DNA of 64,000 nt from Patescibacteria group bacterium. GTDB taxonomy: Bacteria > Patescibacteriota > Patescibacteriia > Veblenbacterales > UBA10138. The translations under genes and the position numbers were made by a program. Position 1 is the stretch's first letter. The number at the start of each line of letters is the position of its first letter. The DNA lies in contig JAHITT010000006.1 in the NCBI GenBank assembly GCA_018817715.1, positions 11,147 to 75,146 of the forward strand, written 5' to 3'. The notes under the pieces are model-generated. The model did no database searches. It saw nothing but the letters and a program-made list of their open reading frames with translations, and was not told the DNA's origin. Below, piece after piece: positions 6,003-64,000 of the stretch.

Positions 6003-6006
6003 TATT

Positions 6007-14551: not shown

Positions 14552-14553
14552 TT

Positions 14554-16101: not shown

Positions 16102-16105
16102 AGAT

Positions 16106-17632
16106 ATGGCTAAATCTAAAATAAATTGGTTTTTGATAAATGAAAATTATGGGGCTAATTTATGTCCTTATATTTTTCATTTTGATGCTGATTATCACTT
16201 ATTCAAAAAAATATTGGGTCGGGGTATGAATTATCAAGGAGTAGGCACGGCCAAAGGTTTTTTGCGTCAAACTTATGATTTAACAGATTATAATAATTTT
16301 GCTGCTTTTGTATTTTTAAAATTAAAAAATGACAAAAAGTTTGCCCGAAAAATGCTTAAGAATATTTTTAAGGTCACTGGAAGTTTTCTTAAATTTAACA
16401 GGGAACTTTTGTCTCAAGATTTAAAAGATCTTACCGCCAGACAGTTAGTTGGTTTATTTAGAAAATTTTATGATAAGTTTGGCTTAATGAGTGCTTGGAG
16501 CGTGCCATTTGCTTTTACTGAGTACGGTACACCTTTATGGTCTAACAGTTTGTTAGAATATATTAACAGTAAAAAATTGTCGGTTGGAATGAGCGTTCAA
16601 GAAGTTTATCAATTATTAGTAGATACCAATAAAAAAACCTTTACAGCTTTAGAAAAAGAAAGTCTGTTAAGGTTAGCGACTATGGTAGTTAAGTCAAAAG
16701 GACTTAAAAAAGTTTTTAATCAGCCCATAAGCCAGATGAAGAAAATTTTGCAATCTGATTATCCATTATTTTATAAATACTTACACACCCATTATGTTAG
16801 TTTTAAATGGATAAATTTTGGCTTCGAAGGGCCAGTTTTAGATGAATTTTATTTTTTATCAGTTATTAAGGACTGGGTTTTTAATAAGAAGCCAGTTGAA
16901 GAGACAGTCAAGCGCAAAAAATACTTAGCTAGCTTAAAAAGTCGGCAGAATCAATTAATCAAAAAATTAAATATAGACAAAGAACATCAGTGGATGCTTT
17001 GGGTGGTTAGGGAATTTAGTTATCAGAAGGCTTATCGTAAAGATGTAGAATATCACAGCTATTATACTTATGATTTTTTATTAGCCGAATTAGCCAGACG
17101 TTTTGGTATGGCGGTTGATCAGGCACATTATTTATTAATGCCAGAAATAAAGGATATCTTATTGGGTAAGAAAAAAGTTAACATTAATGAACTTAATAAA
17201 AGGATGGAAAATAATTTTTATGTAGTTGTAAAAGGTAAGCCTAAATTGTTAGTTGGTCAGTCGGCGGCTAGGTTTGTTAAATTAATAAAAAAAAGAGATA
17301 AATCTAATAATACTAACAATTTATCTGGGCAATGTGCTTGTCCGGGTAAATATAAGGGAAGAATAAAAGTTATAAAAAATAAATCGGATTATACTAAGTT
17401 TAAAAAAGGTGATATTTTGGTAAGTTATGCCACTAATCCTAACATGGTGTCTTTAATGAAAATGGCTGGAGCTATAATAACGGACGAAGGTGGTGTCACC
17501 TGCCACGCCGCCATTGTTTCCAGAGAGTTGGGAGTTCCTTGTGTAATAGGCACCAGATTTGCCACCCAGGTTTTTAAGGATAATGATTTGGTGGAGGTGG
17601 ATGCCGTTAAGGGTACTGTTAAGAAAATTTAA
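16106..17632 (+). CDS. PEP-utilizing mobile-domain protein, paralog 3
   Basis: GGVTCHAAIVSRELGVPCVIGTR C-terminus and paralog motifs (FGFEGP, KAYRKD...LAELARR). Confidence 0.8.
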   Translation: MAKSKINWFLINENYGANLCPYIFHFDADYHLFKKILGRGMNYQGVGTAKGFLRQTYDLTDYNNFAAFVFLKLKNDKKFARKMLKNIFKVTGSFLKFNRELLSQDLKDLTARQLVGLFRKFYDKFGLMSAWSVPFAFTEYGTPLWSNSLLEYINSKKLSVGMSVQEVYQLLVDTNKKTFTALEKESLLRLATMVVKSKGLKKVFNQPISQMKKILQSDYPLFYKYLHTHYVSFKWINFGFEGPVLDEFYFLSVIKDWVFNKKPVEETVKRKKYLASLKSRQNQLIKKLNIDKEHQWMLWVVREFSYQKAYRKDVEYHSYYTYDFLLAELARRFGMAVDQAHYLLMPEIKDILLGKKKVNINELNKRMENNFYVVVKGKPKLLVGQSAARFVKLIKKRDKSNNTNNLSGQCACPGKYKGRIKVIKNKSDYTKFKKGDILVSYATNPNMVSLMKMAGAIITDEGGVTCHAAIVSRELGVPCVIGTRFATQVFKDNDLVEVDAVKGTVKKI

Positions 17633-17633
17633 T

Positions 17634-18848
17634 ATGCCTAAATACATAAAGCAATTAACCAGAGAGAATACTTTATTGGATAGGGCTTTTAGGACTATAG
17701 CTTATGCCAAAAGCCTTCCGGAAATAGGTCGGGCTAAAATAAAAAAAAGCCCCATAGTTGGTTTTGGTCGGGTGACTTCTTTGTATTATGATCCAGTGGA
17801 TTACAAAAAACAACAATCTATAATAATGAAAGAATTTTCTGGACAGAATATTAAGGTAATGTCCTATGAAATCATTAAGTATTTAGAGAAGGGTTATATT
17901 TGGGCCAAAAAAGTAAGTAACAACAGATTAACTAAAGCTGATTTGATTGATTTGATAAAAGATTTTAATTATTGCCACGCTCATGCCAGGGGAGCTATTG
18001 TTTATGGTTATTGGGGAGAACCAGTTATAACAAAATTATTAAAAAACAGTCTTAAAGTTAAAAAAGATAAATTAGATGAGATAGTGTCTGTTTTATCAAC
18101 TCCCCATAAAATAGCCGGCCCTTTAAACAAACTACATAAAACTTCTTCGTTTTTGTATCAAAAAAGAAACGAATTGATTAAATCTTTAAAGTTGACAGGT
18201 AGACAAAATGAATTAGTTGAGATTTTATCTTGGTTTACTTTATTTTATGAAATGGGCGAGAGGGTGTCTGGTTCTATATATAGTTTGCTTTTGAAAAAAA
18301 TTAACCAAATTTTAAAAAAAGATAAAATATATAAGGATATTGATTGGTACGATCCTCAATCTTTAATTACATATTTATCTAAAGGGAAAGCATTATCAAA
18401 GAAGGAATTAAGTAGCAGAAAAGTTTGTTATATATTATTTGTTAAAAAGGATGGGCTAAGAGTTATCAGCGGGCAGTCCGCTTTAAGACAATATAATAAA
18501 ATTTTCAAAGAAAAATTTAATACTAACGTTAGTTTGTTAAAAGGCACAGTGGCTTGCGCTGGCAATGCTAAAGGAAAAATTAAAATAGTGATAACCAAAC
18601 AAGATCAAGCGAAATTTAAACCAGGTGATATTTTAATTTCTACTATGACCACACCTAATTTAATGGGTGCCGTTAAAAAGGCTGCGGCTATAGTAACCGA
18701 TGAGGGTGGTATGACTGCTCACGCTGCCATAATTAGCCGAGAATTAAATATTCCTTGTTTGGTAGGTACTAAAGTAGCTACCAAAGTGTTTAAAGATGGA
18801 GATTTGGTGGAAGTAGATGCTAATAATGGTATAATTAAGAAAATTTAG
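17634..18848 (+). CDS. PEP-utilizing mobile-domain protein, paralog 4 (shorter, most divergent)
   Basis: The ATG at 17634 lies 2 nt after the paralog 3 stop, whereas the track ORF starts inside the upstream gene. C-terminus GGMTAHAAIISRELNIPCLVGTK. The N-domain is about 100 aa shorter than in the other paralogs. Confidence 0.7.
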   Translation: MPKYIKQLTRENTLLDRAFRTIAYAKSLPEIGRAKIKKSPIVGFGRVTSLYYDPVDYKKQQSIIMKEFSGQNIKVMSYEIIKYLEKGYIWAKKVSNNRLTKADLIDLIKDFNYCHAHARGAIVYGYWGEPVITKLLKNSLKVKKDKLDEIVSVLSTPHKIAGPLNKLHKTSSFLYQKRNELIKSLKLTGRQNELVEILSWFTLFYEMGERVSGSIYSLLLKKINQILKKDKIYKDIDWYDPQSLITYLSKGKALSKKELSSRKVCYILFVKKDGLRVISGQSALRQYNKIFKEKFNTNVSLLKGTVACAGNAKGKIKIVITKQDQAKFKPGDILISTMTTPNLMGAVKKAAAIVTDEGGMTAHAAIISRELNIPCLVGTKVATKVFKDGDLVEVDANNGIIKKI

Positions 18849-18852
18849 TCTT

Positions 18853-20379
18853 ATGTCTAAAAAATCATTAAACAATAAAGATGTTTGGATGTTGGCCGAA
18901 GATATTCCGGATATAGATTTATTTTTTGCTCAAATTTGGTTGTCGGCTTTTGTTAATGATATGTCTAAGTCAGTCGGGACTAATTATCAAGAAGTGATGT
19001 GTGTGTTTAAGGGTACCAACATCAAGTTTTATTATAAACAAAAAGACTCAGAAAGGTTTTCTAATCATGTTTTTAATTTAATTAAAAAAAGTCCGGCCTT
19101 TGGAGAAAAAATTAACAAACAAATCAAATTACATACGGATGGGTTGGTGGCTTTGGCGGAAGAAGTCAGGAAAATTAATCTTAAAAAATTAACTAATAAA
19201 GAATTGTGGCAGATTTGGCAAAAACATGATGATATCCATACAGAACTTTATATTTGGGGTTGGTTACCTAATGTTACAGATATGTTTCATAGTAACTTCA
19301 CTCATTATCTGCAATCTTATTTAAACAGTTGTGGGGTTGAAGAAGATTTAATTAATGAATATTTGGTAGTATTAACTAATCCTTCGGCCAAAAGCGTTAT
19401 AAATCAGGAAAGGGAGGAATTCTTAAAATTAGTTGAAGAAATAAAAAAGGTTAAGGCTTTTAAAAAACTTCTTAAATTATCGCCAAGCCAGTTTATAAAA
19501 AAATTACCACTTAGTCGCCGGGTGTTGCTACAGCGCCATTGGGAAAAGTGGCATCATTTAAAATATAATTTTATTGGACCTAAAGTAACAACCTTGGAAG
19601 AATATGCTGAAGAGATACAAAAATTATTATTAAGCGGGATTAATCCTTATAATTTATTAAAGCAAGAAGTAGAAAAAAGAGTTTTGTCTGTTAAAGAAAA
19701 AAATAAATTATTGGCTAAAATTAAACCAGATAAAAAGCATCTGGCCTTGTTTGAATTATGGGGCCATTTTATGTTGACTAAATTTTATAGGCGAAATGGT
19801 CAAATAAGAGCTGTAGCCATATTTAATAATTTATTAAAAGAAACAGCTAGAAGATTGGGTATTTCTTTATTACAAGTTAGGTTGATGTTGAATAGTCAGG
19901 TTAAACAAGGATTGCTTAATAAGAAGGTTAATAAAAAAACGCTTAAAAAACAGAGTCAGTTGGCTGTTTATTGGAGTGCTAAAAACCGGGAATATTTATA
20001 TATTGGAAATAAAGCACAAAAATTTATTAAGACTATACCGCAGGATGGTAATCATGAGGTCGCCGAGCTTAAAGGGCAGTGTGGTAGTTTAGGTAAAGCT
20101 AGTGGTACAGTTAAGTTAATTTTTAGACCGCGTGATATTCCTAAAATGTCTAAAGGCGACATATTGGTTTCGGCGGCTACTGATCCTGATATTGTGCCGG
20201 CTATGAAATTGGCGGGGGCTATTGTAACGGATCAAGGTGGTGTTACAGCTCATGCCGCCATTGTGGCGCGGGAATTAGGTATTCCGTGTTTAATTGGTAC
20301 CAAAATAGCCACTAAAGTTTTTAAAGATGGAGATAGGGTAGAGGTAGACGCTACCAAAGGGGTGGTTAAAAAGTTATAA
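18853..20379 (+). CDS. PEP-utilizing mobile-domain protein, paralog 5
   Basis: GGVTAHAAIVARELGIPCLIGTK C-terminus. Paralog motifs HLKYNFIGP and KFYRRN...LKETARRLG. Confidence 0.8.
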   Translation: MSKKSLNNKDVWMLAEDIPDIDLFFAQIWLSAFVNDMSKSVGTNYQEVMCVFKGTNIKFYYKQKDSERFSNHVFNLIKKSPAFGEKINKQIKLHTDGLVALAEEVRKINLKKLTNKELWQIWQKHDDIHTELYIWGWLPNVTDMFHSNFTHYLQSYLNSCGVEEDLINEYLVVLTNPSAKSVINQEREEFLKLVEEIKKVKAFKKLLKLSPSQFIKKLPLSRRVLLQRHWEKWHHLKYNFIGPKVTTLEEYAEEIQKLLLSGINPYNLLKQEVEKRVLSVKEKNKLLAKIKPDKKHLALFELWGHFMLTKFYRRNGQIRAVAIFNNLLKETARRLGISLLQVRLMLNSQVKQGLLNKKVNKKTLKKQSQLAVYWSAKNREYLYIGNKAQKFIKTIPQDGNHEVAELKGQCGSLGKASGTVKLIFRPRDIPKMSKGDILVSAATDPDIVPAMKLAGAIVTDQGGVTAHAAIVARELGIPCLIGTKIATKVFKDGDRVEVDATKGVVKKL

Positions 20380-20386
20380 TTTATTT

Positions 20387-21937
20387 ATGAAAAAGCAGCA
20401 AAATATTTATACTTTTAGTAATATTAAAAAAGTTAGGTGGGGGGTGCTGGAAGAAAATCAACCCATTCATCTTTTTCCAGTAATGTATCCTTGTTGGTGT
20501 GGTATTGTTAAGGATGTGGGGAAGATTTTAGGTAAACCACAAACTAACATCATCAACTTCAATCATTATGATAAAAGTACAATATTCATTGATCATGATG
20601 AGTGGAATAAATTAGGCCTTTTTACTTTGCGTAAAATTTTACGAGATCCTAAGTGGGGATTTTACATAAGTAAAAAAATTATCAAACTTTCTGATATTTT
20701 GACTAAGTTTACTAGTCAAAAAATACATAAAGTAGATTTAACCAAAAAAACTAATCAGCAATTATATCATTTGTACAAGGAGTATCTAGATAAAGATGTT
20801 GTTGCATATAATTATGCCGCCATACCTGTGTATTTGGATTTATATAAACCTCATTTAACAACATATTTATTAAAATATTTAGATAAGCTTATATCTAAAT
20901 TAGATTATAAAATGACAGCTCGGGAGTGTTTTGTTGGTTTAACTATGCCAGTTGGGTTATCTAAGGTACAAAACGAAGAACTTGATTTATATAAATTAAC
21001 CATCAAAATAAAATCATTTATCAAGAACAATAAATTACCAAAGCTTTCTCAATTATCTGGGAGGAGTTTAAATTTATTCAAAAAGCACACGGATAAATAT
21101 AGATACTTGGGTTATAATTGGGAAGGGCCGGCCTTTTCTGATTATTATTTTTGGAAAAGATTAGAAAATTTATTTAAAGATAAAGTCACTCCACAAACAA
21201 AAATTAAGGATTTTTTTGCCAATAAGAAAAAAGGTATAAGGCTAGCTGAAAAAATAAAGAAGGACTTACATATTGATAATAAACATAATAAGTTGTTGGA
21301 GCTGACTAAACATATAATTTATTCAAAAGAGTATCGAAAAATGGCTTTTGTACAGTCGTATTATGAGGTGGAGAAATTATTAAAGGAGATAGCTGATAGA
21401 TTGTCATTAAGTTTGGATGAAGTTAGGGTGAGCTTATTAACTGAAGTCAGATTAATGTTAACCAGCAAGCTAACCAGACCAAAAGAACTATCAGATAGAA
21501 TAGAGGGGCATTTATTTGTGGTTTTGAGCCAAAAATTACCTGGTCGGGTTTTTACGGATAATCTTTATTTAAAGACCAAGGAATATTTATTAAAGCGACA
21601 GGATTTACACGAAATTAATTATTTCCACGGGCAGACAGCTTGTTTAGGTAAAGCTGAGGGTCTAGTTAAAATAATTAATTCAGTTAAGGATATTGGAAAA
21701 ATGAGAAAAGGGGATATTTTAGTTTCTACTCAGACAAATCCTGATTTAGTACCAGCCATGCGTAAAGCAGCCGCTATAGTGACTGATTTAGGTGGTATAA
21801 CCTGCCACGCAGCTATTGTTTCCAGAGAATTAGGAATACCTTGTGTTATTGGTACTAAAGTGGCTACCAAAGTGCTTAAAGACGATGATAGGGTAGTGGT
21901 GGATGCTAGTAGAGGCGAGATTAAAAAGATTAATTAA
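20387..21937 (+). CDS. PEP-utilizing mobile-domain protein, paralog 6
   Basis: GGITCHAAIVSRELGIPCVIGTK C-terminus. Paralog motifs YLGYNWEGP and KEYRKM...LKEIADRL. Confidence 0.8.
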   Translation: MKKQQNIYTFSNIKKVRWGVLEENQPIHLFPVMYPCWCGIVKDVGKILGKPQTNIINFNHYDKSTIFIDHDEWNKLGLFTLRKILRDPKWGFYISKKIIKLSDILTKFTSQKIHKVDLTKKTNQQLYHLYKEYLDKDVVAYNYAAIPVYLDLYKPHLTTYLLKYLDKLISKLDYKMTARECFVGLTMPVGLSKVQNEELDLYKLTIKIKSFIKNNKLPKLSQLSGRSLNLFKKHTDKYRYLGYNWEGPAFSDYYFWKRLENLFKDKVTPQTKIKDFFANKKKGIRLAEKIKKDLHIDNKHNKLLELTKHIIYSKEYRKMAFVQSYYEVEKLLKEIADRLSLSLDEVRVSLLTEVRLMLTSKLTRPKELSDRIEGHLFVVLSQKLPGRVFTDNLYLKTKEYLLKRQDLHEINYFHGQTACLGKAEGLVKIINSVKDIGKMRKGDILVSTQTNPDLVPAMRKAAAIVTDLGGITCHAAIVSRELGIPCVIGTKVATKVLKDDDRVVVDASRGEIKKIN

Positions 21938-21941
21938 ATAT

Positions 21942-23474
21942 ATGAAGTATCAGTTATTACATCAAGAAACTTCTGTTACACCTCTAACTTTGGGTATGAA
22001 TCACCGGGGATTTCATCATCGCCTGCATACGAAATATACTAGACCTTTTTATTTTAAAGATAGCGTAATTGTTTATAAAAATTATAAGGTTGATTGGTAT
22101 GGTGATATAGATAATTTTTGTGAACTGGGTCAAAAAGTTATTGATAATGTTAAAAAAGACAAAACATTTAGCAAGCGTTTGTTATTAGATGTGGTTAAGA
22201 TTGGACAAGAGTTAGATGAATTGGATAGCATAATAATTAGTGAAAATTTTGCACGATTGACAAAACTAAATTTGCTAAATCAATTTAAAAAATTATTTAA
22301 ATTGTCTTATGATATTTGTGATTTGGGTGCAGTAGCAGTTTATCCTGATTTAAGACATTATAAATTATCAACATTACTTAAGAATATTATTAAGGAAAAA
22401 ATAGTTAAATACAATTTACCTAGAAAAACTAATGACTACTTTTCAATATTAATTACACCTACAATTACTGGTTTGGTGCAGCGGGAAAAGAATGTCATAC
22501 AAGAATTAGCAATTGAAATTCAGAGAGATAAAGCGCTAAAAAATGATTGGCTTAGGTTGAAAGCTAAAGACGTTTTAAAGAAACAAGCAGGCCACCTGCA
22601 CAAAACTATTGATAGTTTATATAAATTATATAGTAATTATCGATGGTCAGCTTTTGGGCAATTAGGGCCAAGTAAAACATTGGATGATTATATCGTTGAC
22701 ATAAAAAGCGAAATAAAAAATCCAATTTTAAAAAAACAAATATTAGAAGCTAAAAAACATTTAAATCAGATATTTAAACTTCAAAATTTATATTATAAAG
22801 AACTTCGTTTGACTAAAGTAGAAATTAACCTGTTTAAAGCGGCTCGAGATTTTAGTGAAAACAAGGTTTATAGATTTGATATTTTACTTAAAACTTGGTT
22901 AGCACTTGATTTGCTTTTGAGAGAAATTGCCAACAGAACAAAATATACGGTTAATGATTTAAGATTTATGTCTCCAGAGGAGATTGTTAGTTTATTAACT
23001 GGTCGGAAAATAATTCCAATTAGTATAATTAAAAATAGGCAAAAATTTTGTTTGACACTTATTAAGAATAATTCAATTATCCATTTAACAGGGGAGCAAG
23101 CCAAATCATACCTACGCCATAATATAGAAGCGGAAAATATTCAAAATAACATTAAGACATTGCATGGTAGTGTGGCTTATATGGGTCGGGTTAGCGGACG
23201 AGTAAAAATAGTTAATAGTCCTAAGGATATTAGTAAGGTTAAAAAAGGAGATATTTTAGTTTCTACTCAGACAAATCCAGATTTATTGCCGGCCATGCGA
23301 AAAGCTGGAGCTTTTGTAACTGATGTAGGTGGTATAACCTCCCATGCTGCTATTGTGGCTAGGGAATTAAAGAAACCTTGTATAATAGGTACAAAGATTG
23401 CTAGTAAAATATTTAAAGATGGTGATAGAGTAGATGTAGATGCTATTAAAGGTAATGTAACATTAATTAAATAA
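21942..23474 (+). CDS. PEP-utilizing mobile-domain protein, paralog 7
   Basis: Start moved to the ATG at 21942, after the TAA at 21935-21937. C-terminus GGITSHAAIVARELKKPCIIGTK, with the canonical TSH form of the catalytic His motif. Confidence 0.75.
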   Translation: MKYQLLHQETSVTPLTLGMNHRGFHHRLHTKYTRPFYFKDSVIVYKNYKVDWYGDIDNFCELGQKVIDNVKKDKTFSKRLLLDVVKIGQELDELDSIIISENFARLTKLNLLNQFKKLFKLSYDICDLGAVAVYPDLRHYKLSTLLKNIIKEKIVKYNLPRKTNDYFSILITPTITGLVQREKNVIQELAIEIQRDKALKNDWLRLKAKDVLKKQAGHLHKTIDSLYKLYSNYRWSAFGQLGPSKTLDDYIVDIKSEIKNPILKKQILEAKKHLNQIFKLQNLYYKELRLTKVEINLFKAARDFSENKVYRFDILLKTWLALDLLLREIANRTKYTVNDLRFMSPEEIVSLLTGRKIIPISIIKNRQKFCLTLIKNNSIIHLTGEQAKSYLRHNIEAENIQNNIKTLHGSVAYMGRVSGRVKIVNSPKDISKVKKGDILVSTQTNPDLLPAMRKAGAFVTDVGGITSHAAIVARELKKPCIIGTKIASKIFKDGDRVDVDAIKGNVTLIK

Positions 23475-23476
23475 AT

Positions 23477-24082
23477 ATGATTAAGCTTATTATTTTTGAT
23501 TTGTATGGTCTTATATTAAGTTCGGGTTATCCAGATACTTCCAAATATCTGGCTAAGAAGTTTGGTGGAGATTGGCGGGATTATCAGGCCATAATATATA
23601 AAAAGTATTTTAACCAGGCGGCGGTACGACAAATAACTCAAAAACAGGCTTGGGTTTTGGCGGCTAAAGAATTAAAGTTACCGATTTCTTGGCAGGAGTT
23701 AAGAAAAATACATTATAAACTAATGACCTTGGATAAGCGGTTGGTTAAGTTAGATAAGGAATTAAACAAAAAAGGTTATATTACTTTAGTGCTTTCCAAG
23801 AATACCCGTAGTCAATTGGCCGATAACTGTAAGCGTTTTGGAATTAAAAAAATATTTAAAAATGTGATTAATACTTGGGAACTTAATTTACCTAAAGCCA
23901 GTAAAAAAACATTGGCCTTGGTTTTAAAGCGTTTTAAGGTTAAGCCGGAAGAGGTTATTTATGCGGATGATCAAAAGGCTAATTTAGTAGACGCTAAAGA
24001 AATGGGCATTAAAACAATTTTTGTTAAGAATTATCAGCAGTTTAAAAAAGAATTGGATGGTTATCTTTCTTATGATAAATAA
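23477..24082 (+). CDS. HAD-superfamily hydrolase-like protein (non-canonical motif I)
   Basis: N-terminal LIIFDLYGLIL is a HAD motif-I position but reads D-L-Y rather than DxD. C-terminal IYADDQKANLVDAKEMGIKTIFV is HAD motif-IV-like. 201 aa, embedded in the paralog array. Confidence 0.5.
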   Translation: MIKLIIFDLYGLILSSGYPDTSKYLAKKFGGDWRDYQAIIYKKYFNQAAVRQITQKQAWVLAAKELKLPISWQELRKIHYKLMTLDKRLVKLDKELNKKGYITLVLSKNTRSQLADNCKRFGIKKIFKNVINTWELNLPKASKKTLALVLKRFKVKPEEVIYADDQKANLVDAKEMGIKTIFVKNYQQFKKELDGYLSYDK

Positions 24083-24107
24083 ATTTAAAGAAAAAGGTTG
24101 GCGTTTA

Positions 24108-25568
24108 ATGTCTCAACGACAAAGGTTAAGCCCTTTCCCTAACTATATGTCTATGGAAGCTATGACGGGTTTAGTTAAGGAGTATGTTGGTGAAAATATA
24201 GATTGGCTGGTTTTATTTTTTGAAGACAGGATAATGAATGGGTTTAGTCCGTCTAAATCTTTTTTTGCTTCAGCTAATGATATTGTGAATAGGCTGGAGA
24301 ATAATCCTGGTATTTATGCTGATTTAATTAAAAAGCAGAATTATTGGGGAAAAAAATTGGTTAAACACGCTAAATTGAGTTTTAATAAAGTAGATAGTAC
24401 AAGTACGGCTCGAGATTTGTATAATTTTTGGATGAATTTTGAACGTATTTATAAACAGGTTTATGCTACTTATGGATCAGTTTGGATGATAGAGGATGTT
24501 TTTAATAATCGTTTATTACAGATAGTTAAAGAAAGGATTAGTAATGAAGTAAAATCTGTGGAGTTGCTTAATCTTTTGACATTACAACCAAAAGCTATGG
24601 TAGCGAGATTGGAAAAACAGGCTTTGTTAGAAGTGGCTGTTAAAATAGGTATTCGTTCTGGTTGGCGGCAGCAAGTTTTAAAAGGCAATTTTAAATCATT
24701 TGATAAAGGTTTAGTTGCTTTGATAGTTAAACACGAACGTGATTATTTTTGGGTAACTAGGGATTATGAGGATCCTATTTTGGACAAAGAAAGGATTATC
24801 AGCAAACTAAAAGACGTTTTACGAGAGAATTATAAAACTAACTTATTAGCCATGAAAAAAGAGTTGGTTAAATGGCGACAGCAGCAAGATTTTTTGACAA
24901 AGAAATTGCAATTGACTAATAAGGAAAAAAAGTTATTCTCGGCTATGCAGGATGTAGCTTACTTGAAGGAATTACGTAAGCATTATGTTTCAGAATCTTT
25001 ATATTATTTTGATAGGGTCTTATTGGAAATCGGCCGCCGTAGTTGTTTAAGTATTAAACAAGTTAGATTTTTAAAAACAGAAGACTTAAGCAGTGTTTTA
25101 TTTAGTAAAAAAGATTTTAGTAAAACAATTAATGATAGAATAAAATTATCTGTTTGGATAAGTCATCAAGGTAAAACAAAAGTAATAACTGGTAAAAAGG
25201 CTGAAATTTTAAAGAAAAAATTTATTCAAAAACCAAAAAATCTTTTGGAATTTATAGGTACCCCGGTGAGTCCTGGCAAAGCCCGTGGTCCAGTTAAAAT
25301 AGTATTGAATCCAGATGAGTGTTCTAAGGTTAAAAAAGGGGATATTATCGTTAGTATTCAAGTCGTGCCTAGTTTTTCAGCAGCCATTCAACGAGCGGCT
25401 GGTTTAATTTGCGATGGTGGACATGGCATTACTACTCATCCTGCTATTTTAGCTAGAGAAGCTAAAATTCCAGCAATTATTCAAACTAGGTTTGCTCGAG
25501 AAGTTTTAAAAGATGGTGATATAGTGGAGGTTGATGGTTATAAAGGTATGGCAAGAAAAATAAAATAA
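24108..25568 (+). CDS. PEP-utilizing mobile-domain protein, paralog 8 (divergent)
   Basis: The ATG at 24108 lies after the HAD gene stop at 24082. C-terminus GGHGITTHPAILAREAKIPAIIQTR with the His retained. Paralog motif KELRKH...LLEIGRR. Confidence 0.7.
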   Translation: MSQRQRLSPFPNYMSMEAMTGLVKEYVGENIDWLVLFFEDRIMNGFSPSKSFFASANDIVNRLENNPGIYADLIKKQNYWGKKLVKHAKLSFNKVDSTSTARDLYNFWMNFERIYKQVYATYGSVWMIEDVFNNRLLQIVKERISNEVKSVELLNLLTLQPKAMVARLEKQALLEVAVKIGIRSGWRQQVLKGNFKSFDKGLVALIVKHERDYFWVTRDYEDPILDKERIISKLKDVLRENYKTNLLAMKKELVKWRQQQDFLTKKLQLTNKEKKLFSAMQDVAYLKELRKHYVSESLYYFDRVLLEIGRRSCLSIKQVRFLKTEDLSSVLFSKKDFSKTINDRIKLSVWISHQGKTKVITGKKAEILKKKFIQKPKNLLEFIGTPVSPGKARGPVKIVLNPDECSKVKKGDIIVSIQVVPSFSAAIQRAAGLICDGGHGITTHPAILAREAKIPAIIQTRFAREVLKDGDIVEVDGYKGMARKIK

Positions 25569-41541: not shown

Positions 41542-41936
41542 GCCAAACATATTCTATAAGCCGAATTCTGTATCCCGCGAACGCGGGACGATAGTTATCT
41601 ATCTAGATCGCTTTTCGCAAAGCGACTCAAGCTACCAACCCGCTCCCGCCAAGGCGGGAGCCTATTTGGTATTGCACCGAGTAGAGTTTGCCTAGCCTTT
41701 ATTGTCGCCAATAAAGCTGGTGAGCTTTTACCTCACCGTTTCACCCATCACTCCCGCCAAAAGGCGGGGGCTGGTTTGTTTTCTGTTGCACTTGTCCTGC
41801 TAATCAGGTTAAAAACTGATTAACGGTTCCTGTTAGGAATTACTCTTCCCTAAAGACGGGAACGCTATGGTGTTCGGACTTTCCTCTCCTTACCCTTATA
41901 AAGAGTAAAGGAGCAACTATCCGAATAAGCTTGGCC
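41542..41936 (-). ncRNA. rnpB: RNase P RNA (bacterial type A)
   Basis: The minus strand contains GAGGAAAGTCCGAAC (P4 5' strand) and CAACAGAAAACAAACC. It also contains GGGTGAAACGGTGAGGTAAAAGCTCACCAGC (P10.1/P11 universally conserved block) and ACAGAATTCGGCTTAT (P4 3' strand). A P1 helix is formed by GCCAAGCTTATTC/GAATATGTTTGGC. About 395 nt. Confidence 0.8.
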
Positions 41937-57915: not shown

Positions 57916-58424
57916 TTGAAAACTAAAATATCAGTTTTTATAGCTTCCGGCTTGGGTGTGGGTTTTATTCCTTTGGCTCCAGGAACTTTTGGCAGTATTT
58001 TAGCTTTACCAATCTGCCATTACGCTTTGCAAATATCCCAAAACAACTGGTTTTACTATCCTTTAATAATCATTGCTATTTATATACTTGGTTATTTAAG
58101 TATAGAGCCAGCCAGAATTTTCCTAGGCACTAGAAAAATTCTTACGGGGAGGAAGTGGAGTATGACCAAAAAGAGATTATTATAGATGAAATTTTGGGTA
58201 TGCTGGTTGCTTTTGCCCCTTTATTAAAAGTAAAACCGCATAACTATCTTTTGTCAGCTATTATACTGCTTATTCTGTTCCGTATTTTTGATATATTAAA
58301 ACCCTGGGGAATAAACAGAATTGATGCCGGTAAAACACCGCACCATATTTTGCTGGATGATTACGTAGCCGGCTTATATAGCGCCGGTTGCTATATCCTA
58401 ATAAACTTAATGTTTCCAATATAA
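57916..58424 (+). pseudogene. pgpA: phosphatidylglycerophosphatase A (PgpA) split by a frameshift into two ORFs
   Basis: ORF1 (57916-58185) carries the PgpA N-terminal SGLGVGFIPLAPGTFGS motif. ORF2 (58155-58424) carries the C-terminal DEILGM...FRIFDILKPWGI...DDYVAGLYS. Together about 170 aa, the PgpA length. The frames switch near 58150-58185. Confidence 0.55.
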
Positions 58425-58429
58425 CCAAA

Positions 58430-58459
58430 AGCCCCGCTTATATTAAATAAAGCGGGGCT
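58430..58459 (+). terminator. hairpin terminator after pgpA
   Basis: AGCCCCGCTT-(10 nt)-AAGCGGGGCT 10 bp stem. The downstream T-tract is weak (GAATTATTATATA). Confidence 0.4.
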
Positions 58460-58576
58460 GAATTATTATATAGCAATATCTTGACCTTTAAGCTAACAAA
58501 ATCTAGAATAATACAGCCAGTATTAATATTGGGTAGCCAGTTTAATTTACAATTTATAGAGTTTCGTATTTCCAGC

Positions 58577-58647
58577 TGGGGGATCGTCTAATGGTAGGAC
58601 TCAGGCCTTTGAAGCCTGCTATGATGGTTCGAATCCATCTCCCCCAG
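58577..58647 (+). tRNA. tRNA-Gln (anticodon UUG)
   Basis: TGGGGGA acceptor, anticodon arm CAGGC-CTTTGAA-GCCTG, 4 nt variable loop, T-arm GATGG-TTCGAAT-CCATC, 3' acceptor TCCCCCA plus discriminator G. CCA not encoded. A plausible TTGACC/TAGAAT promoter lies about 90 nt upstream. Confidence 0.8.
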
Positions 58648-58696
58648 CTGGAAATAGGAGATATAATACTTAGGACTTCCCGCCTTGGCGGGACTA

Positions 58697-58723
58697 ATGA
58701 TGGTTCGAATCCATCTCCCCCAG
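58697..58723 (+). repeat. exact 27 bp duplicate of the tRNA-Gln 3' end (att-like remnant)
   Basis: ATGATGGTTCGAATCCATCTCCCCCAG is identical to 58621-58647. It is preceded by a degenerate anticodon-arm-like CCCGCCTTGGCGGG. Confidence 0.7.
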
Positions 58724-58754
58724 AGATAAAAAAGTAATGGACTTATCCGTTGCT
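58724..58754 (+). repeat. 31 bp direct repeat copy 1 (AGATAAAAAAGTAATGGACTTATCCGTTGCT)
   Basis: 30/31 identical to 60537-60567. Both copies are immediately preceded by CAG, and the similarity extends weakly for about 30 more bp (GGTATAT box). Confidence 0.65.
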
Positions 58755-58871
58755 TTTTTATCTTTTTATGGTATATGATAGATTCTAAGGGCGCGAGAAA
58801 AAGCGAACAGATGTAGTTTTGATACACACCGCCCAGGTGTCCGATTCGCCAACTGGCGAAGGAGTGAAGGA

Positions 58872-58888
58872 GAATCCATCTCCTCCAG
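58872..58888 (+). repeat. third copy of the tRNA-Gln 3'-end core (16/17 match)
   Basis: GAATCCATCTCCTCCAG versus GAATCCATCTCCCCCAG. Confidence 0.5.
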
Positions 58889-58960
58889 CCAGTCTGGACA
58901 CCGTACCTATGACCAGGACGGGTCTTCAGGTGCTCTTTGAATTATTAAGAGGTCTATAAC

Positions 58961-60418
58961 ATGGCAAAGATTAGTGACATATATCATTTAAATAAAACAC
59001 AGCGCGAGTTGGATTTTGTAAACATAAATATAGACAGAGACTTTCCTGTATATCTAAATCCATTCATTTTTTCCGCGCGTCCTGATCCATTTTCCATTGA
59101 TGCAATTCGAACAATTAGCGGATTTTTTCAATTTAATCTTGAGCTGATTAGGAATGGACAGATTGACCAAGCACGCGCCAACTTCCAACATTTAAATGAA
59201 CCAAACGAGACATGTCTTGGAATGTCTAGAAGGAGTCCTCGAGGGCGTGGTGTCGGAGAAGAAAATGCAGATGATTTATTCGATAGCATCTCCACAAGTA
59301 GAGCAGTGGCGTCAGGGCTAGTTGAGCACCTCGAAGACACGGCAATATTTATTGAGGGCATTGGCAAGGACAAGGTTTCAGATATGACTACCAATATTAT
59401 TCGTGCAAACCTCATTGCGTACACTCAGGCGCAATGCGCATTGCATGGGATTCCTATGACCACCGATGTTCCTTCGGGTTTTTTCTGGGACGCCACTAAC
59501 CGCAGATGGGAGCAAGTACACACAGAAATGTTGGTAGTAAATTATAAGAAAATTTTGCTGGTACCCAAAGCGGTAGTTTCTTATGTAAAGGAATTTAATC
59601 ATGGAAAATATCATCAGCACTACGCTCTTGAATTTCTCCAGGATGACCACTTGAGGAGAAATACGCCACTTGTTCAGACTACCCATAATAAAGACGGTTC
59701 CGTTAGACGTCGTTTCGTGACAAAGAAAGACCTTATTCAGCGCGAGTTAACTTCCAATAAAGAAGAACTAATCGACTTCACTAGGCGTCATCCAGAAGTT
59801 TTTAATAATTTTCGAACCGGTGCAGCATCACAGGTATTTCCAATGAATGATTCGGAGCTTGAATCTATTGATGTTAATCAGCTCATAAATCATCTCATTG
59901 CAAGACTGGGGACGATTAAGAGTGGAGATGCCACAGCATCTGCTTACCACACCCTGATGGTAGGTATTCTCGAATTTATATTCTATCCAAATCTCATTAA
60001 CCCCGTTAAAGAATTAGAGATTAATCAGGGAAGAAAAAGGATAGACATTGCTTTTGATAACGGCGCTCCTTCTGACGGGTTTTTCTACAGACTGCAACAT
60101 GCGTTTAGTATACCTTGTCCATATATCTTTATTGAGTGCAAGAATTACTCAAAAGATATACGTAATCCTGAGCTAGATCAAATGGTCGGTAGATTTTCCC
60201 CAAATAGGGGCAGGTTTGGAATTATTGTCTGTCGAGACATTGACGATGAAGATGTTTTTCTTAAACGATGTGCTGATTCGTATAAGGATCAACACGGATT
60301 GATTATTCCACTCACTGATGCAGACTTGATCAATATCTTGAACCAGAAGAAAGCGGGCATTGAACATCCAGAAGATGAAATTTTGTCACAGAAAGCTAGG
60401 AGAGTAATGAACTCATAA
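58961..60418 (+). CDS. hypothetical protein with C-terminal PD-(D/E)xK nuclease-like motif, compositionally foreign (GC-richer)
   Basis: C-terminal GRKRIDIAFDNG...(about 20 aa)...YIFIECKNYSK matches the D...(D/E)xK restriction-endonuclease-fold pattern. Codon usage is visibly more G/C-rich than in neighbouring genes. Bracketed by the 31 bp direct repeats. Confidence 0.5.
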   Translation: MAKISDIYHLNKTQRELDFVNINIDRDFPVYLNPFIFSARPDPFSIDAIRTISGFFQFNLELIRNGQIDQARANFQHLNEPNETCLGMSRRSPRGRGVGEENADDLFDSISTSRAVASGLVEHLEDTAIFIEGIGKDKVSDMTTNIIRANLIAYTQAQCALHGIPMTTDVPSGFFWDATNRRWEQVHTEMLVVNYKKILLVPKAVVSYVKEFNHGKYHQHYALEFLQDDHLRRNTPLVQTTHNKDGSVRRRFVTKKDLIQRELTSNKEELIDFTRRHPEVFNNFRTGAASQVFPMNDSELESIDVNQLINHLIARLGTIKSGDATASAYHTLMVGILEFIFYPNLINPVKELEINQGRKRIDIAFDNGAPSDGFFYRLQHAFSIPCPYIFIECKNYSKDIRNPELDQMVGRFSPNRGRFGIIVCRDIDDEDVFLKRCADSYKDQHGLIIPLTDADLINILNQKKAGIEHPEDEILSQKARRVMNS

Positions 60419-60536
60419 TAGTGTCGCATTTGTCGCTTTTGGGCTCATTCCGAGGAGCGTCAAAATGATAGAATAAAAGTAGTCAGAAAAGCCTTGTGGG
60501 GCTTGATGGGTAAATTTACGAGACCGAGTCAGTCAG

Positions 60537-60567
60537 AGATAAAAAAGTAATAGACTTATCCGTTGCT
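60537..60567 (+). repeat. 31 bp direct repeat copy 2 (AGATAAAAAAGTAATAGACTTATCCGTTGCT)
   Basis: See copy 1. It lies 47 bp upstream of the ATPase gene start (RBS AAAGAGGT). Confidence 0.65.
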
Positions 60568-60613
60568 CTCTTATTTTTTAAGGTATATTATAAACTAAAG
60601 AGGTAGAAATTAT

Positions 60614-61861
60614 ATGATAAAAGTAAATCCATTTACACCTAACAGTCCTGTACACAAAGATATGTTTGCTGGGCGTAAATCTGAAATTGATGCTATAGAT
60701 AAGGCCTTATTACAAACTGCTCATGGAAACCCGACTCATTTATTACTTCTTGGAGAAAGAGGAATAGGTAAAACTTCATTACTAAACGCTGCTGATTTTT
60801 TTGCTAGAGGTGATGTGCTATGGGAAGCGGAAAGAAAACATAATTTTTTAGTATCTAGAGTTAGTTTGAATGAAAATATAACACTAGTAGACCTAGCTAT
60901 TAGTTTAAAAAACTCTATAGAAAGGGAACTCGACAAAGAATACCCCCAAATAGCACTAATTAAAAAGGCTTGGAACTTTTTAAGTCGTTTTGAGGCGGTT
61001 GGAATTTCTTATAAAAAAGACGAGTCCAATAAAAACAACGCTCAAATTATCCAAGATTTTATATATTCTTTGTCTGATACACTAAAATTAATACAAAATA
61101 AAAGTCTATCTGTAAAAGACAAAAAAGATGGATTAGTGATACTGATAGACGAAGCAGATAAGGCTTCAAAAGAACTATTTATAGGATCTTTTTTAAAAAA
61201 TTTAACAGAAACACTAGTTAGGGAAAGTAATAATAATATACTTTTTATTGTAAGTGGTTTACCAAACACAAGAAATATACTATCTGACAGCCATGAATCT
61301 TCTTTACGCTTATTTCAGGAATTTGATCTTGGTCCACTTTCTTCAGAAGAAACATCTCAAGTTATTAATAACGGCTTAAAAGAATCAAAAAAAACATCCA
61401 ATATAGATACCGTTATTAATAAAGACGCCTTAATTAGTATATATGCCTATTCAGAAGGATATCCTCATTTTGTTCAACAAATAGGCTATTCTGTTTTTGA
61501 GGCAGATACAGATAATATTATATCAATAGAAGATGTCAAAAAAGGTGTTTTTATGAACCACGGGGCGTTAGAACTTATAGGAGATAGATATTATGTTAAG
61601 CCTTTTTACAAAGATATAAACGTAGAATCACAAAGAGAAATTTTAACGATAATGGCAGAAAAATGGAATGATTGGATTAAAAAAACAGATATACAAAAAA
61701 ATTTTTCAGGTAAAAAAACAGCTTTAAATAACGGTTTAAGAGCGCTAAAAGAAAAAGGGATAATTATTCCAAGAGAAGGTTATAATGGGCAGTACAGGCT
61801 ACAATGGGCAAGCTTTGCTTTTTGGATAAAAAACCATAAAAAAACAGAGAGAAGAAATTAA
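60614..61861 (+). CDS. AAA+/STAND-like P-loop ATPase (Arch_ATPase/AAA_16-like) with C-terminal winged-helix-like tail
   Basis: FAGRKSEIDAIDKAL...LLLLGERGIGKTSLL (Walker A), hhhhDE Walker B VILIDEADK, and the C-terminal ...NNGLRALKEKGIIIPREGYNGQYRL. Very AT-rich codon usage. Confidence 0.6.
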   Translation: MIKVNPFTPNSPVHKDMFAGRKSEIDAIDKALLQTAHGNPTHLLLLGERGIGKTSLLNAADFFARGDVLWEAERKHNFLVSRVSLNENITLVDLAISLKNSIERELDKEYPQIALIKKAWNFLSRFEAVGISYKKDESNKNNAQIIQDFIYSLSDTLKLIQNKSLSVKDKKDGLVILIDEADKASKELFIGSFLKNLTETLVRESNNNILFIVSGLPNTRNILSDSHESSLRLFQEFDLGPLSSEETSQVINNGLKESKKTSNIDTVINKDALISIYAYSEGYPHFVQQIGYSVFEADTDNIISIEDVKKGVFMNHGALELIGDRYYVKPFYKDINVESQREILTIMAEKWNDWIKKTDIQKNFSGKKTALNNGLRALKEKGIIIPREGYNGQYRLQWASFAFWIKNHKKTERRN

Positions 61862-61878
61862 TATAAAAAATAATTTTT

Positions 61879-62271
61879 ATGAAAACAATATTAGTAGACG
61901 CTGTAGATGCGTTTGTGGTAGAGGAGCGGGGGAGTTTTAAGGTTTTTCAAGATATGCATAATCTTTTGGAAACCTATCCCAATCCCAAAATCATTCTAAC
62001 TGGCGCCAATGATGAACAATATTTAAAATTCGGCCTGGATAAAATGCCTTATCCGGTTTTTACCTTAAAGCACAATCCCGAGAAAACCGACCCCAAATAC
62101 TTTGAAACTTTACTGCAAAGGTTTAATCTTAATAAAGACGAAGTTGTTTATTTTGAGCATAACCCCCAGGCGGTTAAAAGCGCTGAATCTGTTGGTCTAA
62201 AATCCTACTTTTACGACAGTGCCAAACAAGACCTTGTAGCGCTTAAGGAGTTTTTGGATAATAATATTTAA
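61879..62271 (+). CDS. hypothetical protein (possibly degenerate HAD-like)
   Basis: 130 aa. ILVDAVDAF N-terminus and C-terminal VYFEHNPQAVKSAESVGLKSYF loosely resemble HAD motifs I and IV. Weak. Confidence 0.3.
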   Translation: MKTILVDAVDAFVVEERGSFKVFQDMHNLLETYPNPKIILTGANDEQYLKFGLDKMPYPVFTLKHNPEKTDPKYFETLLQRFNLNKDEVVYFEHNPQAVKSAESVGLKSYFYDSAKQDLVALKEFLDNNI

Positions 62272-62275
62272 TTAG

Positions 62276-63049
62276 ATGAAACTAATTACCTTAAACACTT
62301 GGGGTGGGATTGTTTTTCAGCCTTTAATGGATTTTATTAAAAAACACTCGGTTAATACCGATATTTTTTGTTTTCAGGAAATGTTGTTTGGCCCTAAGCC
62401 CCAATTTACACCAGTAAACAAAGCTAGGGAAAATCTGTTTACAGAAATATCAGCCATTTTGCCCGATTTTGTTGCTTATAAACATATACCAGCCTCGGAT
62501 CATTTTGCTGGTGAAATAGTTAATTTTGGCACTGGCCAAGCTATTTTTGTTAAAAATACAATTAAAGTAATTAATAATGGGGCTTTTAAATGCTATGATA
62601 AAATGTTTTCTGAAATCGAAACACTGCAAAGGGATAGTGGTCGGGTTACAGGCAATGTTCAGCATATTGATTTGGAAATAGGTAATCAAATTTTTTCTAT
62701 TTTAAATTTTCATGGTCTATGGCAAAAGAATACGCATAAAGCCGATACAGCAGAAAGATTAAGGCAATCCGAAATAATAAAAACTTTTCTAAATAGTAAA
62801 AATAATAAAAAAATTCTCTGTGGGGATTTTAATTTAAAAGCCGACGGACAAAGTATAAAAATTTTAGAACAAGGCTTGGTTAATTTAGTAAAAAAGTATA
62901 ATGTCTTATCTACTCGCAGTAAATTTTATACTAAAGAAGAAAAAATGGCTGATTATATAATTGTTTCACCAGATATAGAGGTAAACAAATTTAAGGTTTT
63001 TTCCGACGACATTTCCGACCATTTACCTTTGTTAGTGGAATTTAAATAA
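62276..63049 (+). CDS. endonuclease/exonuclease/phosphatase (EEP) family protein
   Basis: LITLNTWGG, CFQE, ILCGDFNL and the C-terminal SDHLPLLVEF, the EEP catalytic motif set. Confidence 0.7.
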   Translation: MKLITLNTWGGIVFQPLMDFIKKHSVNTDIFCFQEMLFGPKPQFTPVNKARENLFTEISAILPDFVAYKHIPASDHFAGEIVNFGTGQAIFVKNTIKVINNGAFKCYDKMFSEIETLQRDSGRVTGNVQHIDLEIGNQIFSILNFHGLWQKNTHKADTAERLRQSEIIKTFLNSKNNKKILCGDFNLKADGQSIKILEQGLVNLVKKYNVLSTRSKFYTKEEKMADYIIVSPDIEVNKFKVFSDDISDHLPLLVEFK

Positions 63050-63054
63050 TAATT

Positions 63055-63537
63055 ATGAGTAATAATATTTATTTAAAAAAGATTTTAAAATTATATTATT
63101 TTTTTAAAAATCCTCTCTATAAGGTTTATTGTTTTATTTTTCGACCAAAATCCTTAGGAGTAAAAATAATAGTCGAAAACAATGGTAAACTATTAATGAC
63201 TAAATTAGGTTATGCCCATAAAAAATGGGTTTTTCCTGGTGGCGCGGTTAATAAAAAAGAAAATGCCGAACAAACAGCTGTTAGAGAATTAGAAGAGGAA
63301 ACCGGAATTAAAACCAATAAACTAATCGAAATAGGCGAATACACATCCGAAAGAAATTATAAGAAAAATATTGTAAAATGTTTTTATTTGCTTGCGGATT
63401 CTTCTTTTGTAAAAATAGACAATTTTGAGGTTATAGATTCAGGTTGGTATAACCCCCAAGAACTTCCCAAAGACTGCTCTGTATCTATTCCACAAATAAT
63501 AAAAATATATCAACAATATAAACTTAAGCAAAATTAA
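63055..63537 (+). CDS. Nudix hydrolase
   Basis: Nudix box GGAVNKKENAEQTAVRELEEETGI. Confidence 0.75.
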   Translation: MSNNIYLKKILKLYYFFKNPLYKVYCFIFRPKSLGVKIIVENNGKLLMTKLGYAHKKWVFPGGAVNKKENAEQTAVRELEEETGIKTNKLIEIGEYTSERNYKKNIVKCFYLLADSSFVKIDNFEVIDSGWYNPQELPKDCSVSIPQIIKIYQQYKLKQN

Positions 63538-63539
63538 TT

Positions 63540-64000
63540 ATGCTGGAATTTGGTATAAAACGGGAAAACGAAGAACGGCGGGACGGTGGTTGTGGTGTGG
63601 TGTTTAATCCAGCCAGCCAAAAATACGCCGTAGGGCAAGATTATGACGGCGGATTATTTAGGCTTTTTTCCGGCGGTGTTAGCGAGGGTGAAGGTATTGA
63701 GCAGGGTATTTTAAGAGAAGTTACCGAGGAAAGCGGCCTACATGATTTTTTATACATAGAAAAAATTTCCCAAGCCTTGGTGCGTTATCGTAACAGTCTT
63801 AAACAAGTAAACCGAGTCGGCTTGGCTACTTGTTTTTTAGTTGTTTTAAAATCAGCTGATTTATTAGACACTAAATTAGAAGAGCACGAAAAATTTAGTT
63901 TAACTTGGGCAACCGCCAATGAAATTATAAAAAACTGGGAACAAAGGAACCAAAATAAAGATTATGACCACTGGATTTATTTTTTAAAAAAGGCTGTAAA
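63540..64000 (+). CDS. Nudix hydrolase (3' end truncated by the window edge)
   Basis: Nudix box SGGVSEGEGIEQGILREVTEESGL. The ORF runs off the end of the window. Confidence 0.65.
   Translation, partial: MLEFGIKRENEERRDGGCGVVFNPASQKYAVGQDYDGGLFRLFSGGVSEGEGIEQGILREVTEESGLHDFLYIEKISQALVRYRNSLKQVNRVGLATCFLVVLKSADLLDTKLEEHEKFSLTWATANEIIKNWEQRNQNKDYDHWIYFLKKAV

Follow-up and report, generated by a model that had tools for sequence, protein, structure and literature searches.

A candidate single-gene islet encoding a DUF8370 protein behind tRNA-Gln(TTG) in a Patescibacteria genome

Direct repeats and tRNA-end relics at the locus

We analyzed a stretch of 64,000 nucleotides (nt), referred to as the window, from a Patescibacteria group bacterium (assembly GCA_018817715.1, contig JAHITT010000006.1, positions 11,147-75,146, forward strand), in which one gene for a 485-residue protein of the DUF8370 family lies between two copies (R1 and R2) of a direct repeat, R, 3' of a tRNA-Gln(TTG) gene. 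Positions are those of the window, and the features of the locus described here are on the + strand. The islet spans 58724-60536 (1,813 bp, or 1,738 bp without the repeat sequence) and holds this single intact gene. The tRNA-Gln(TTG) gene that anchors the site (58577-58648) was called by ARAGORN, scored 64.8 bits against the Rfam tRNA model, and is near-identical in two host relatives (L091 and L093). The whole arrangement, including both repeat copies, was reproduced in L006, an independent Logan assembly of the same genome region (~58.6-73.5 kb in window numbering), and window and L006 together give 74 kb of readable DNA from this genome. We consider the chances evenly balanced that our preferred explanation holds as a whole, namely a horizontally acquired single-gene islet at a long-standing integration hot spot 3' of tRNA-Gln(TTG), brought in by a single crossover and encoding a probable anti-phage nuclease.

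An earlier note on this DNA had placed 31-nt direct repeats at 58724-58754 and 60537-60567. These positions proved exact, with 30 of 31 nucleotides identical, and the full repeat is longer. The aligned core covers 46 nt at 91% identity (58721-58766 and 60534-60579), and similarity runs on past a GGTATAT box in each copy to ~58795 and ~60608, for a total of ~72-75 nt. The left edge is abrupt, since identity falls from ~97% to ~50% immediately 5' of the trinucleotide CAG (58721 and 60534), which in R1 forms the last 3 nt of a perfect 27-nt copy of the tRNA-Gln 3' end. With up to 3 mismatches allowed, the 31-mer matched the window at these two places alone, where shuffled sequence gave an expectation of none, and no further copy of R was found in the 74 kb of this genome; the 31-mer is no widespread promoter motif.

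The two copies differ in folding. R1 (58721-58795) contains a hairpin with an 18-bp stem and a U-run, terminator-like in form, and a GGTATAT box at 58770-58776; its predicted RNA fold (-24 kcal/mol, z = -7.3) is located where a terminator for the tRNA would be expected, and we infer that the hairpin is the terminator behind tRNA-Gln. In R2 (60534-60608), the hairpin is decayed (-7.4 kcal/mol, z = -0.4), all substitutions in the first 46 nt weaken the R1-type hairpin, and the GGTATAT box (60582-60588) is followed by a ribosome-binding site, AAAGAGG (60597-60603). An Rfam scan of 58300-60700 returned the tRNA alone above threshold; sub-threshold matches of MIR8008 and SpF25 on R1 can be put down to a hairpin of a generic kind. 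In base composition, both copies have the AT-richness of host spacers (31.9% GC in R1 and 23.4% in R2, compared with 32.6% in pooled host intergenic DNA). The pattern TTGCT(T/C)-N15-17-TAT(A/T)(T/A)T is kept in both and leads, in R2, into AAAGAGG and the ATG of a downstream ATPase gene. This weak resemblance to a promoter consensus makes a promoter function of the GGTATAT boxes plausible. Against a promoter role, a consensus promoter and terminator scan called neither the GGTATAT boxes nor R, and the earlier description of the repeat as a promoter-carrying att site is not sustained, R1 being mainly a strong terminator-like hairpin.

Three relics of a tRNA end, M1, M2 and M3, lie in a row at the locus. 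M1 (58649-58723) directly follows the tRNA gene and consists of a spacer, a GC-rich hairpin (58679-58692) and the perfect 27-nt copy of the tRNA-Gln 3' end (58697-58723, 27/27). A hairpin of the M1 type, GGACTTCCCGC..GCGGGACTA, together with a decayed tRNA end is also present 3' of tRNA-Gln in the relative L093, and a comparable relic is present in contig L120. Because the relic is common to L093 and L120, the 3'-end duplicate must be ancestral and older than the insertion. The earlier note had spoken of a tRNA-Gln duplicate at this place; the proposal that it was made by this insertion was therefore rejected. In L093 (12138-12262), we also observed a tRNA-Gln relic split by an insertion of ~69 nt carrying a strong hairpin and a further T-arm-like motif, GGGGTTCGACTTGCCCC, so that relics are nested there. 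Separately, the M1 hairpin (58678-58693) has a 16-nt exact inverted match at 41644-41659, probably a shared terminator-type hairpin.

M2 lies in the GC-rich left end of the insert (58796-58889, 51-52% GC) and comprises a hairpin (58845-58860) and a decayed tRNA-Gln 3' end (58865-58889). M2 resembles M1 more closely than any of 2000 shuffles did. The GC-rich tail of the insert (60419-60536, 44% GC) ends in M3 (60489-60536, the last ~50 nt), which has the same layout as M1, i.e., a hairpin (60489-60504), GATGG and a terminal CAG, and which may be a strongly decayed tRNA-Gln 3' half. In tRNA-like folding trials of M1, M2 and the leader of the DUF8370 gene, M1 gave no convincing structure (z = -0.3) and M2 gave a moderate one (z = -3.0). 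In L120, which has no DUF8370 gene, a 73%-identical homologue of the downstream ATPase begins 47 nt past the relic behind tRNA-Gln(CTG), and an order of relic and then ATPase is a plausible state of the site before insertion. The sharing of M1 with L093, the M2 relic inside the insert, and the L120 ATPase placed after tRNA-Gln and a relic together indicate that the hot spot has long been in use.

Two further observations concern the tRNA gene itself. A promoter-like TTGACC-17-TAGAAT lies upstream of it at 58481-58509. Its acceptor stem is lengthened by complementary flanks, TTTCCAGC ... GCTGGAAA (58564-58583 and 58640-58659; 20-nt arms, 95% complementary), and this extended helix may serve in precursor processing.

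The DUF8370 protein and its family

The open reading frame (ORF) at 58961-60418 is intact and has a good ribosome-binding site (AAGAGG, 58947-58952), which lies in a leader (58890-58960) that also contains the hairpin GACCAGGACGGGTC. Similar hairpins of the form GAC..GGGTC were noticed, by eye and without statistics, 50-75 nt 5' of the gene in contigs L001 and L010, in both of which the gene follows tRNA-Gln. The encoded protein comprises a conserved N-terminal module (residues ~1-300) and a C-terminal PD-(D/E)xK domain (~305-485). The protein had no match in our local copies of Pfam, which lacked the PF28123 model, or of NCBIfam; the identical protein KKC17_03390, from a Patescibacteria metagenome-assembled genome (MAG), and all 120 listed homologues have a precomputed hit to PF28123 (DUF8370). 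PADLOC matched the protein to PDC-M36A (PDLC04597) with E = 2e-43, the best stretch being residues 3-224. The claim of a single 485-residue gene with an RIDI...ECK nuclease motif between the repeats was borne out, as D362 of RIDI and E392 and K394 of ECK are invariant among 69 homologues.

Structural modeling placed these catalytic residues on model strands E360-367 and E388-394. The full-length AlphaFold2 model had a mean predicted local distance difference test (pLDDT) of 90.5, and the C-terminal domain modeled separately had a pLDDT of 87.7. A fold search, suggested in the earlier note, returned mainly PD-(D/E)xK proteins as the top PDB matches of this domain, namely the FokI cleavage domain (TMq 0.55-0.59), Nt.BspD6I, VC1899 and Can2, with Cap4, EcoT38I, BsoBI, BamHI and the Rpb5 N-domain among the others. 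Mrr-type endonucleases led the matches in the viral structure library BFVD, and MspJI was the top PDB match of the full-length structure (E = 0.023). Searches of the PDB by sequence, with the single sequence and with a profile, gave no meaningful match. As modeled, the C-terminal domain is a PD-(D/E)xK nuclease fold with a restriction-endonuclease-like core.

The N-terminal module of ~300 residues is more conserved still than the C-terminal domain. Its profile recovered 2,141 clusters at 50% identity, in which most members are ~480 residues long and many are ~300 residues long, apparently consisting of the module alone; the module was found alone on plasmids of Bacillus and Acinetobacter. In a few proteins, it is fused instead to PNP_UDP_1 (P0399 and P0481) or to a CHAT protease (P0422), and the C-terminal domain is in turn fused to a C5 DNA methyltransferase on a Bacillus cereus megaplasmid (L096, 2927-4615). 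A module with interchangeable effectors is a pattern typical of immune sensor-effector proteins. The N-terminal module would thus gate or target an Mrr/FokI-like DNase. There is no methyltransferase beside the gene, so self-protection would have to come from gating by the N-terminal module or from dependence on modified DNA, and we infer either an attack on modified DNA, similar to that of Type IV enzymes, or a switch-on cued by infection, as in abortive infection. The protein would most likely act as a stand-alone anti-phage nuclease, and an antiviral role overall seems somewhat more probable than not having one. Two points weigh against this assignment: the E-values of the fold matches are weak (0.01-0.1), and the nuclease and defence functions of the family are predictions only, PDC-M36 being a computational candidate.

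Relatives of the protein are present in at least 420 GTDB species representatives from many phyla. No universal partner gene was found across 80 DUF8370 loci. The commonest neighbours at these ~80 loci were large serine recombinases (9), followed by MazG-like proteins (7), tyrosine integrases (7 and 5), Schlafen-type helicases (6), C5 methyltransferases (5) and small resolvases (4), with large serine recombinases additionally found at L001, L005 and L118. A same-strand tRNA gene was located within 700 nt upstream of the DUF8370 gene at 4 of the 80 GTDB loci (L010, L021, L061 and L074) and in 4 of the 8 closest contexts. The tRNAs directly 5' of the gene were Gln in L001 and L010, Asn in L005, Leu in L021, Arg in L061 and Ala in L074. 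In L001, tRNA-Gln(CTG) is followed by the DUF8370 gene, a C5 methyltransferase gene, a BglII-like gene and a serine recombinase gene; in L005, tRNA-Asn is followed by the DUF8370 gene and a serine recombinase gene; and in L010, tRNA-Gln(TTG) with a partial 3' copy is followed by a small ORF and then the DUF8370 gene. Elsewhere, the gene lies between TraG/UvrD genes and a serine recombinase gene (L118) or between genes for a YhcG/NucS nuclease and a Shedu SduA_C nuclease (L117). Among viral collections, GenBank phages yielded no member of the family, PHROG lists it as 27295, and 19 IMG/VR contigs contain it. Altogether, the DUF8370 family is associated with mobile elements and tRNA genes.

The best analogue of the window islet is in a Calditrichia MAG (L021, 7717-10605), where a 2.8-kb islet without an integrase lies downstream of tRNA-Leu(CAA) and contains the DUF8370 gene and a PIN toxin-antitoxin pair. 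The tRNA gene borders it on one side, and on the other there is a copy of the last 46 nt of that gene at 96% identity, which is the classic form of a tRNA-end repeat. A different repeat was observed in L010, where 76 nt are directly repeated at 87% identity (4292-4367 and 5996-6071); one copy is just 3' of the DUF8370 gene and the other is inside a 477-residue ORF that had no Pfam hit, and the repeat may be a piece of a duplicated gene.

Origin of the insert and its route of entry

The insert is foreign and was acquired horizontally. Its DUF8370 protein is 74% identical to the copy in the Patescibacteria contig L001, whereas identity between the same genomes drops to 32% for FtsX and 49% for FtsE, and DNA similarity to the DUF8370 genes of relatives is confined to the segment from the ATG to the stop codon. 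The host relatives compared were L091/L092 (FtsX 71%) and L093/L094 (FtsX 62%); the contig of the nearest relative, L090 (FtsX 87%), stops just past PCD, so that its post-tRNA region is absent from the comparison. L091-L094 share the gene order LepA...FtsE-FtsX-PCD-tRNA-Gln with the window genome, but carry wholly different genes after the tRNA, with neither the DUF8370 gene nor the ATPase gene, and the shared backbone (genes for a PDDEXK_1 protein, a NUDIX protein and a cupin) resumes in the window genome only ~8 kb downstream. Thus, the gene is no housekeeping orthologue in conserved synteny. Composition gave a mixed picture. The earlier note had called the insert conspicuously GC-richer than the genome, which is too strong. 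The insert as a whole has 41.5% GC, compared with 35.9% for the window (top 0.9% of equal-sized windows), and the clearer signal comes from its non-coding parts (44-52%, compared with 32.6% for host intergenic DNA). The ORF is only modestly enriched (40.2%; 36% at third codon positions, GC3), a level that is matched by core genes at 47-52 kb and counts against a foreign composition.

The gene next to the islet (60614-61861) encodes a 415-residue AAA_16/ORC-Cdc6-like P-loop ATPase (Pfam AAA_16, E = 1e-11), in agreement with the AAA+ ATPase that the earlier note had described with R2 directly upstream. Homologues of this ATPase were located in restriction-modification (R-M) and defence islands (L007 and L009), and R is absent from the upstream regions of the homologues. 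It was rejected as a functional partner of the DUF8370 protein, since the two never co-occur elsewhere and the ATPase never clusters as a DUF8370 neighbour. The ATPase gene is accessory and not a fixed host gene.

Most likely, the islet arrived either as a circle or within a larger element through one reciprocal Campbell-type crossover, the crossover point being at or beside the CAG that ends relic M1. The partners would have been a host site M1|R, with R as the native spacer before the ATPase gene, and an incoming M3|R, and the product would be M1(host)-R1(element)...M3(element)-R2(host). A single crossover of this kind would yield the duplicated spacer of ~72 nt, its abrupt left boundary, two copies that diverge by 9%, and the weak match of M3 to M1. 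We propose that it was catalyzed by a site-specific recombinase acting in trans or arose by homologous recombination; a recombinase may have acted in trans or been lost later, and many close homologues of the gene still have a large serine recombinase linked to them. Once the islet was in place, R1 would have kept the terminator hairpin behind the tRNA, and the ATPase gene would have retained its promoter-like box and ribosome-binding site within R2. A target-site duplication made by a transposase was rejected, as the repeat is 72 nt long and there are no terminal inverted repeats and no transposase.

Several observations tell against such a crossover. No integrase or recombinase was found in the 10 kb to either side, among the called genes of ~58.6-73.5 kb (precomputed Pfam) or among the Pfam-scanned genes of the window, where most upstream ORFs were unscanned; large serine recombinases typically get by with short att sites that are not identical, without generating 70-nt repeats; the repeat core, AAGTAATNGACTTATCCGTTGC, had no match in genome, metagenome or viral contig collections; neither an empty site nor a second instance of R was obtained from any close strain; and M3 is only marginally similar to M1 or to the 3' half of the tRNA (p about 0.03-0.05). 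It is possible, though we think it unlikely, that R is not a recombination site at all and is instead the native terminator/promoter spacer, doubled by RecA-dependent homologous recombination or unequal crossover between related tRNA-Gln loci or left by successive islet accretion and decay, in which case each of the relics M1, M2 and M3 would be an old junction. The three relics in a row, the nested relic in L093, the host-like AT-richness of R and the lack of a visible recombinase all suit this explanation, as does the insert's own tRNA-Gln-like relic followed by a leader as in L001, which would be expected from a donor fragment carrying tRNA-Gln and then DUF8370. The sharp CAG boundary and the near-equal extent of the copies speak for one crossover more than for a gradual decay, however, and a double-crossover homologous replacement would leave the spacer unduplicated. 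The earlier idea of a foreign nuclease cassette therefore stands as to a foreign insert with one nuclease-fold gene from a family of defence candidates, and falls short as to the att site, for which there is neither a recombinase nor a second instance.

Two other explanations concern the gene. That it is an ordinary vertically inherited gene, with the repeat a local promoter that was duplicated by chance or for regulation, would agree with an ORF whose GC and GC3 are within the host core-gene range and with three Patescibacteria that have the gene beside tRNA-Gln. This explanation is largely refuted by the present evidence and we regard it as most improbable: the gene is missing from the syntenic L091-L094, the 74% identity stands against 32-49% for core proteins, L001, L010 and L005 each have a different gene neighbourhood, and the non-coding flanks are compositionally foreign. 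Alternatively, the gene might be a selfish or addiction nuclease, similar to a homing endonuclease or a toxin, and not serve host defence. The gene encodes a nuclease, stands alone, is scattered patchily over the phyla, is inserted between genes beside tRNAs, adjoins a PIN toxin pair in L021, and is found on small plasmids and in predicted proviruses, all of which could be read in this way. Yet its long, conserved N-terminal module is swapped onto PNP and CHAT effectors, which is typical of immune proteins, the gene sits amid defence genes, R-M and Shedu-type ones among them, and its flanks are not conserved, contrary to homing; we consider a selfish role improbable. A role of the DUF8370 protein in host defence, carried on a horizontally acquired islet, thus remains our preferred explanation.

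Relation to known systems and significance

PDC-M36 is one of 145 defence candidates identified by 'guilt-by-embedding' (Payne et al. 2024, bioRxiv 10.1101/2024.01.29.577857), where it is described as a three-gene cassette, FAM_01399>>FAM_00303>>FAM_00303 (bioRxiv 10.1101/2024.01.29.577857). The window protein matches component A over its N-terminal ~220 residues, and in both cases predicted defence genes are found in or near R-M and defence loci. The window gene differs in being solitary: the FAM_00303 partners are absent, the ATPase had no PDC-M36 hit, and only the N-terminal module is matched. A complete PDC-M36 system was rejected, both partner genes being absent.

Mrr, MspJI and FokI enzymes (Type IV and Type IIS) resemble the window protein in their C-terminal fold, in the D...ExK triad, and in the order of a non-catalytic N-terminal module and then a cleavage domain. 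Type IV enzymes are similar also in being encoded by a solitary gene with an Mrr-like fold and no adjacent methyltransferase, and the window protein may, by analogy, likewise be specific for modified DNA. Unlike these enzymes, the window protein has no sequence similarity to solved structures, and its N-terminal module resembles no DNA-reading domain found here, is far more conserved than usual specificity domains, and pairs with PNP and CHAT. With regard to Type II R-M systems, there is no methyltransferase in the window locus, and a C5 methyltransferase is near only 5 of the ~80 homologous loci; the locus does not belong to this type.

As for the islet, it resembles tRNA genomic islands and cis-mobilizable elements (CIMEs) in its location 3' of a tRNA gene, its direct repeats, its foreign composition, its absence from relatives, the lack of an internal integrase and the presence of older relics. 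It differs from them in that the repeat is a spacer past a tRNA-end relic and not the tRNA 3' end, in its size (1.8 kb, one gene), and in that the cognate integrase was not found; the clear repeat begins at the end of the tRNA-end relic and not inside it, and the tRNA-like M3 before R2 is only marginally similar. Integron cassettes are comparable in having a single ORF that looks promoter-less, an imperfect-palindrome repeat, and a tandem arrangement with the next gene; here, however, the palindrome is intact in one copy only, there are just two copies, and there is no attI. An integron cassette was rejected, as reading R revealed no attC core sites (RYYYAAC/GTTRRRY) and there was no IntI among the genes scanned. 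By analogy, the locus is comparable to a CIME-type remnant of an integrative element that carries a putative solitary restriction-type nuclease.

Three observations concern the surroundings of the locus. Directly 5' of tRNA-Gln, the gene for PgpA (phosphatidylglycerophosphatase A, 57916-58424) is broken into two overlapping ORFs of 89 residues, which match profile positions 1-57 and 66-140; the gene may be frameshifted or a pseudogene, or the split may stem from an error in sequencing. Past the ATPase gene, a stretch of ~8 kb (window 61879-64000 and L006 3296-10713) contains small genes of the NUDIX (at least 5), HAD-like, EEP and RNase T families, and this NUDIX-rich stretch is variable relative to L091. 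Farther away, eight successive same-strand ORFs of 429-523 residues (13034-25568, 29-33% GC) look like an unusual tandem array of paralogues, with a mobile domain of phosphoenolpyruvate-utilising enzymes (PF00391) at the end of each of the three ORFs scanned out of the eight.

The islet is tidy but fairly ordinary, and its family has already been catalogued, as a Pfam DUF and a PADLOC candidate, with its function uncharacterised. To our knowledge, little is known about how Patescibacteria (candidate phyla radiation, CPR), with their tiny genomes, gain and keep defence genes. The locus offers one compact instance, a hot spot linked to a tRNA gene in which relics are nested and accessory modules of one gene each are housed. 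A bolder proposal, to which we give only a small chance, is that DUF8370 is a widespread, unrecognised single-protein immune system in which a sensor gates a DNase, PNP or CHAT effector, and that its Patescibacteria genes may move as mini-cassettes without a recombinase, captured at the decoy M1 by an integrase acting in trans, with R as part of the att site. If such mini-cassettes exist, each insertion would re-supply a promoter to the downstream gene that it displaces. The more useful lead is the DUF8370 family itself, which is broad, conserved, linked to mobile elements and of sensor-effector build; if sensing by its N-terminal module were shown, the module would be a new input domain for the catalogue of bacterial immune sensors.

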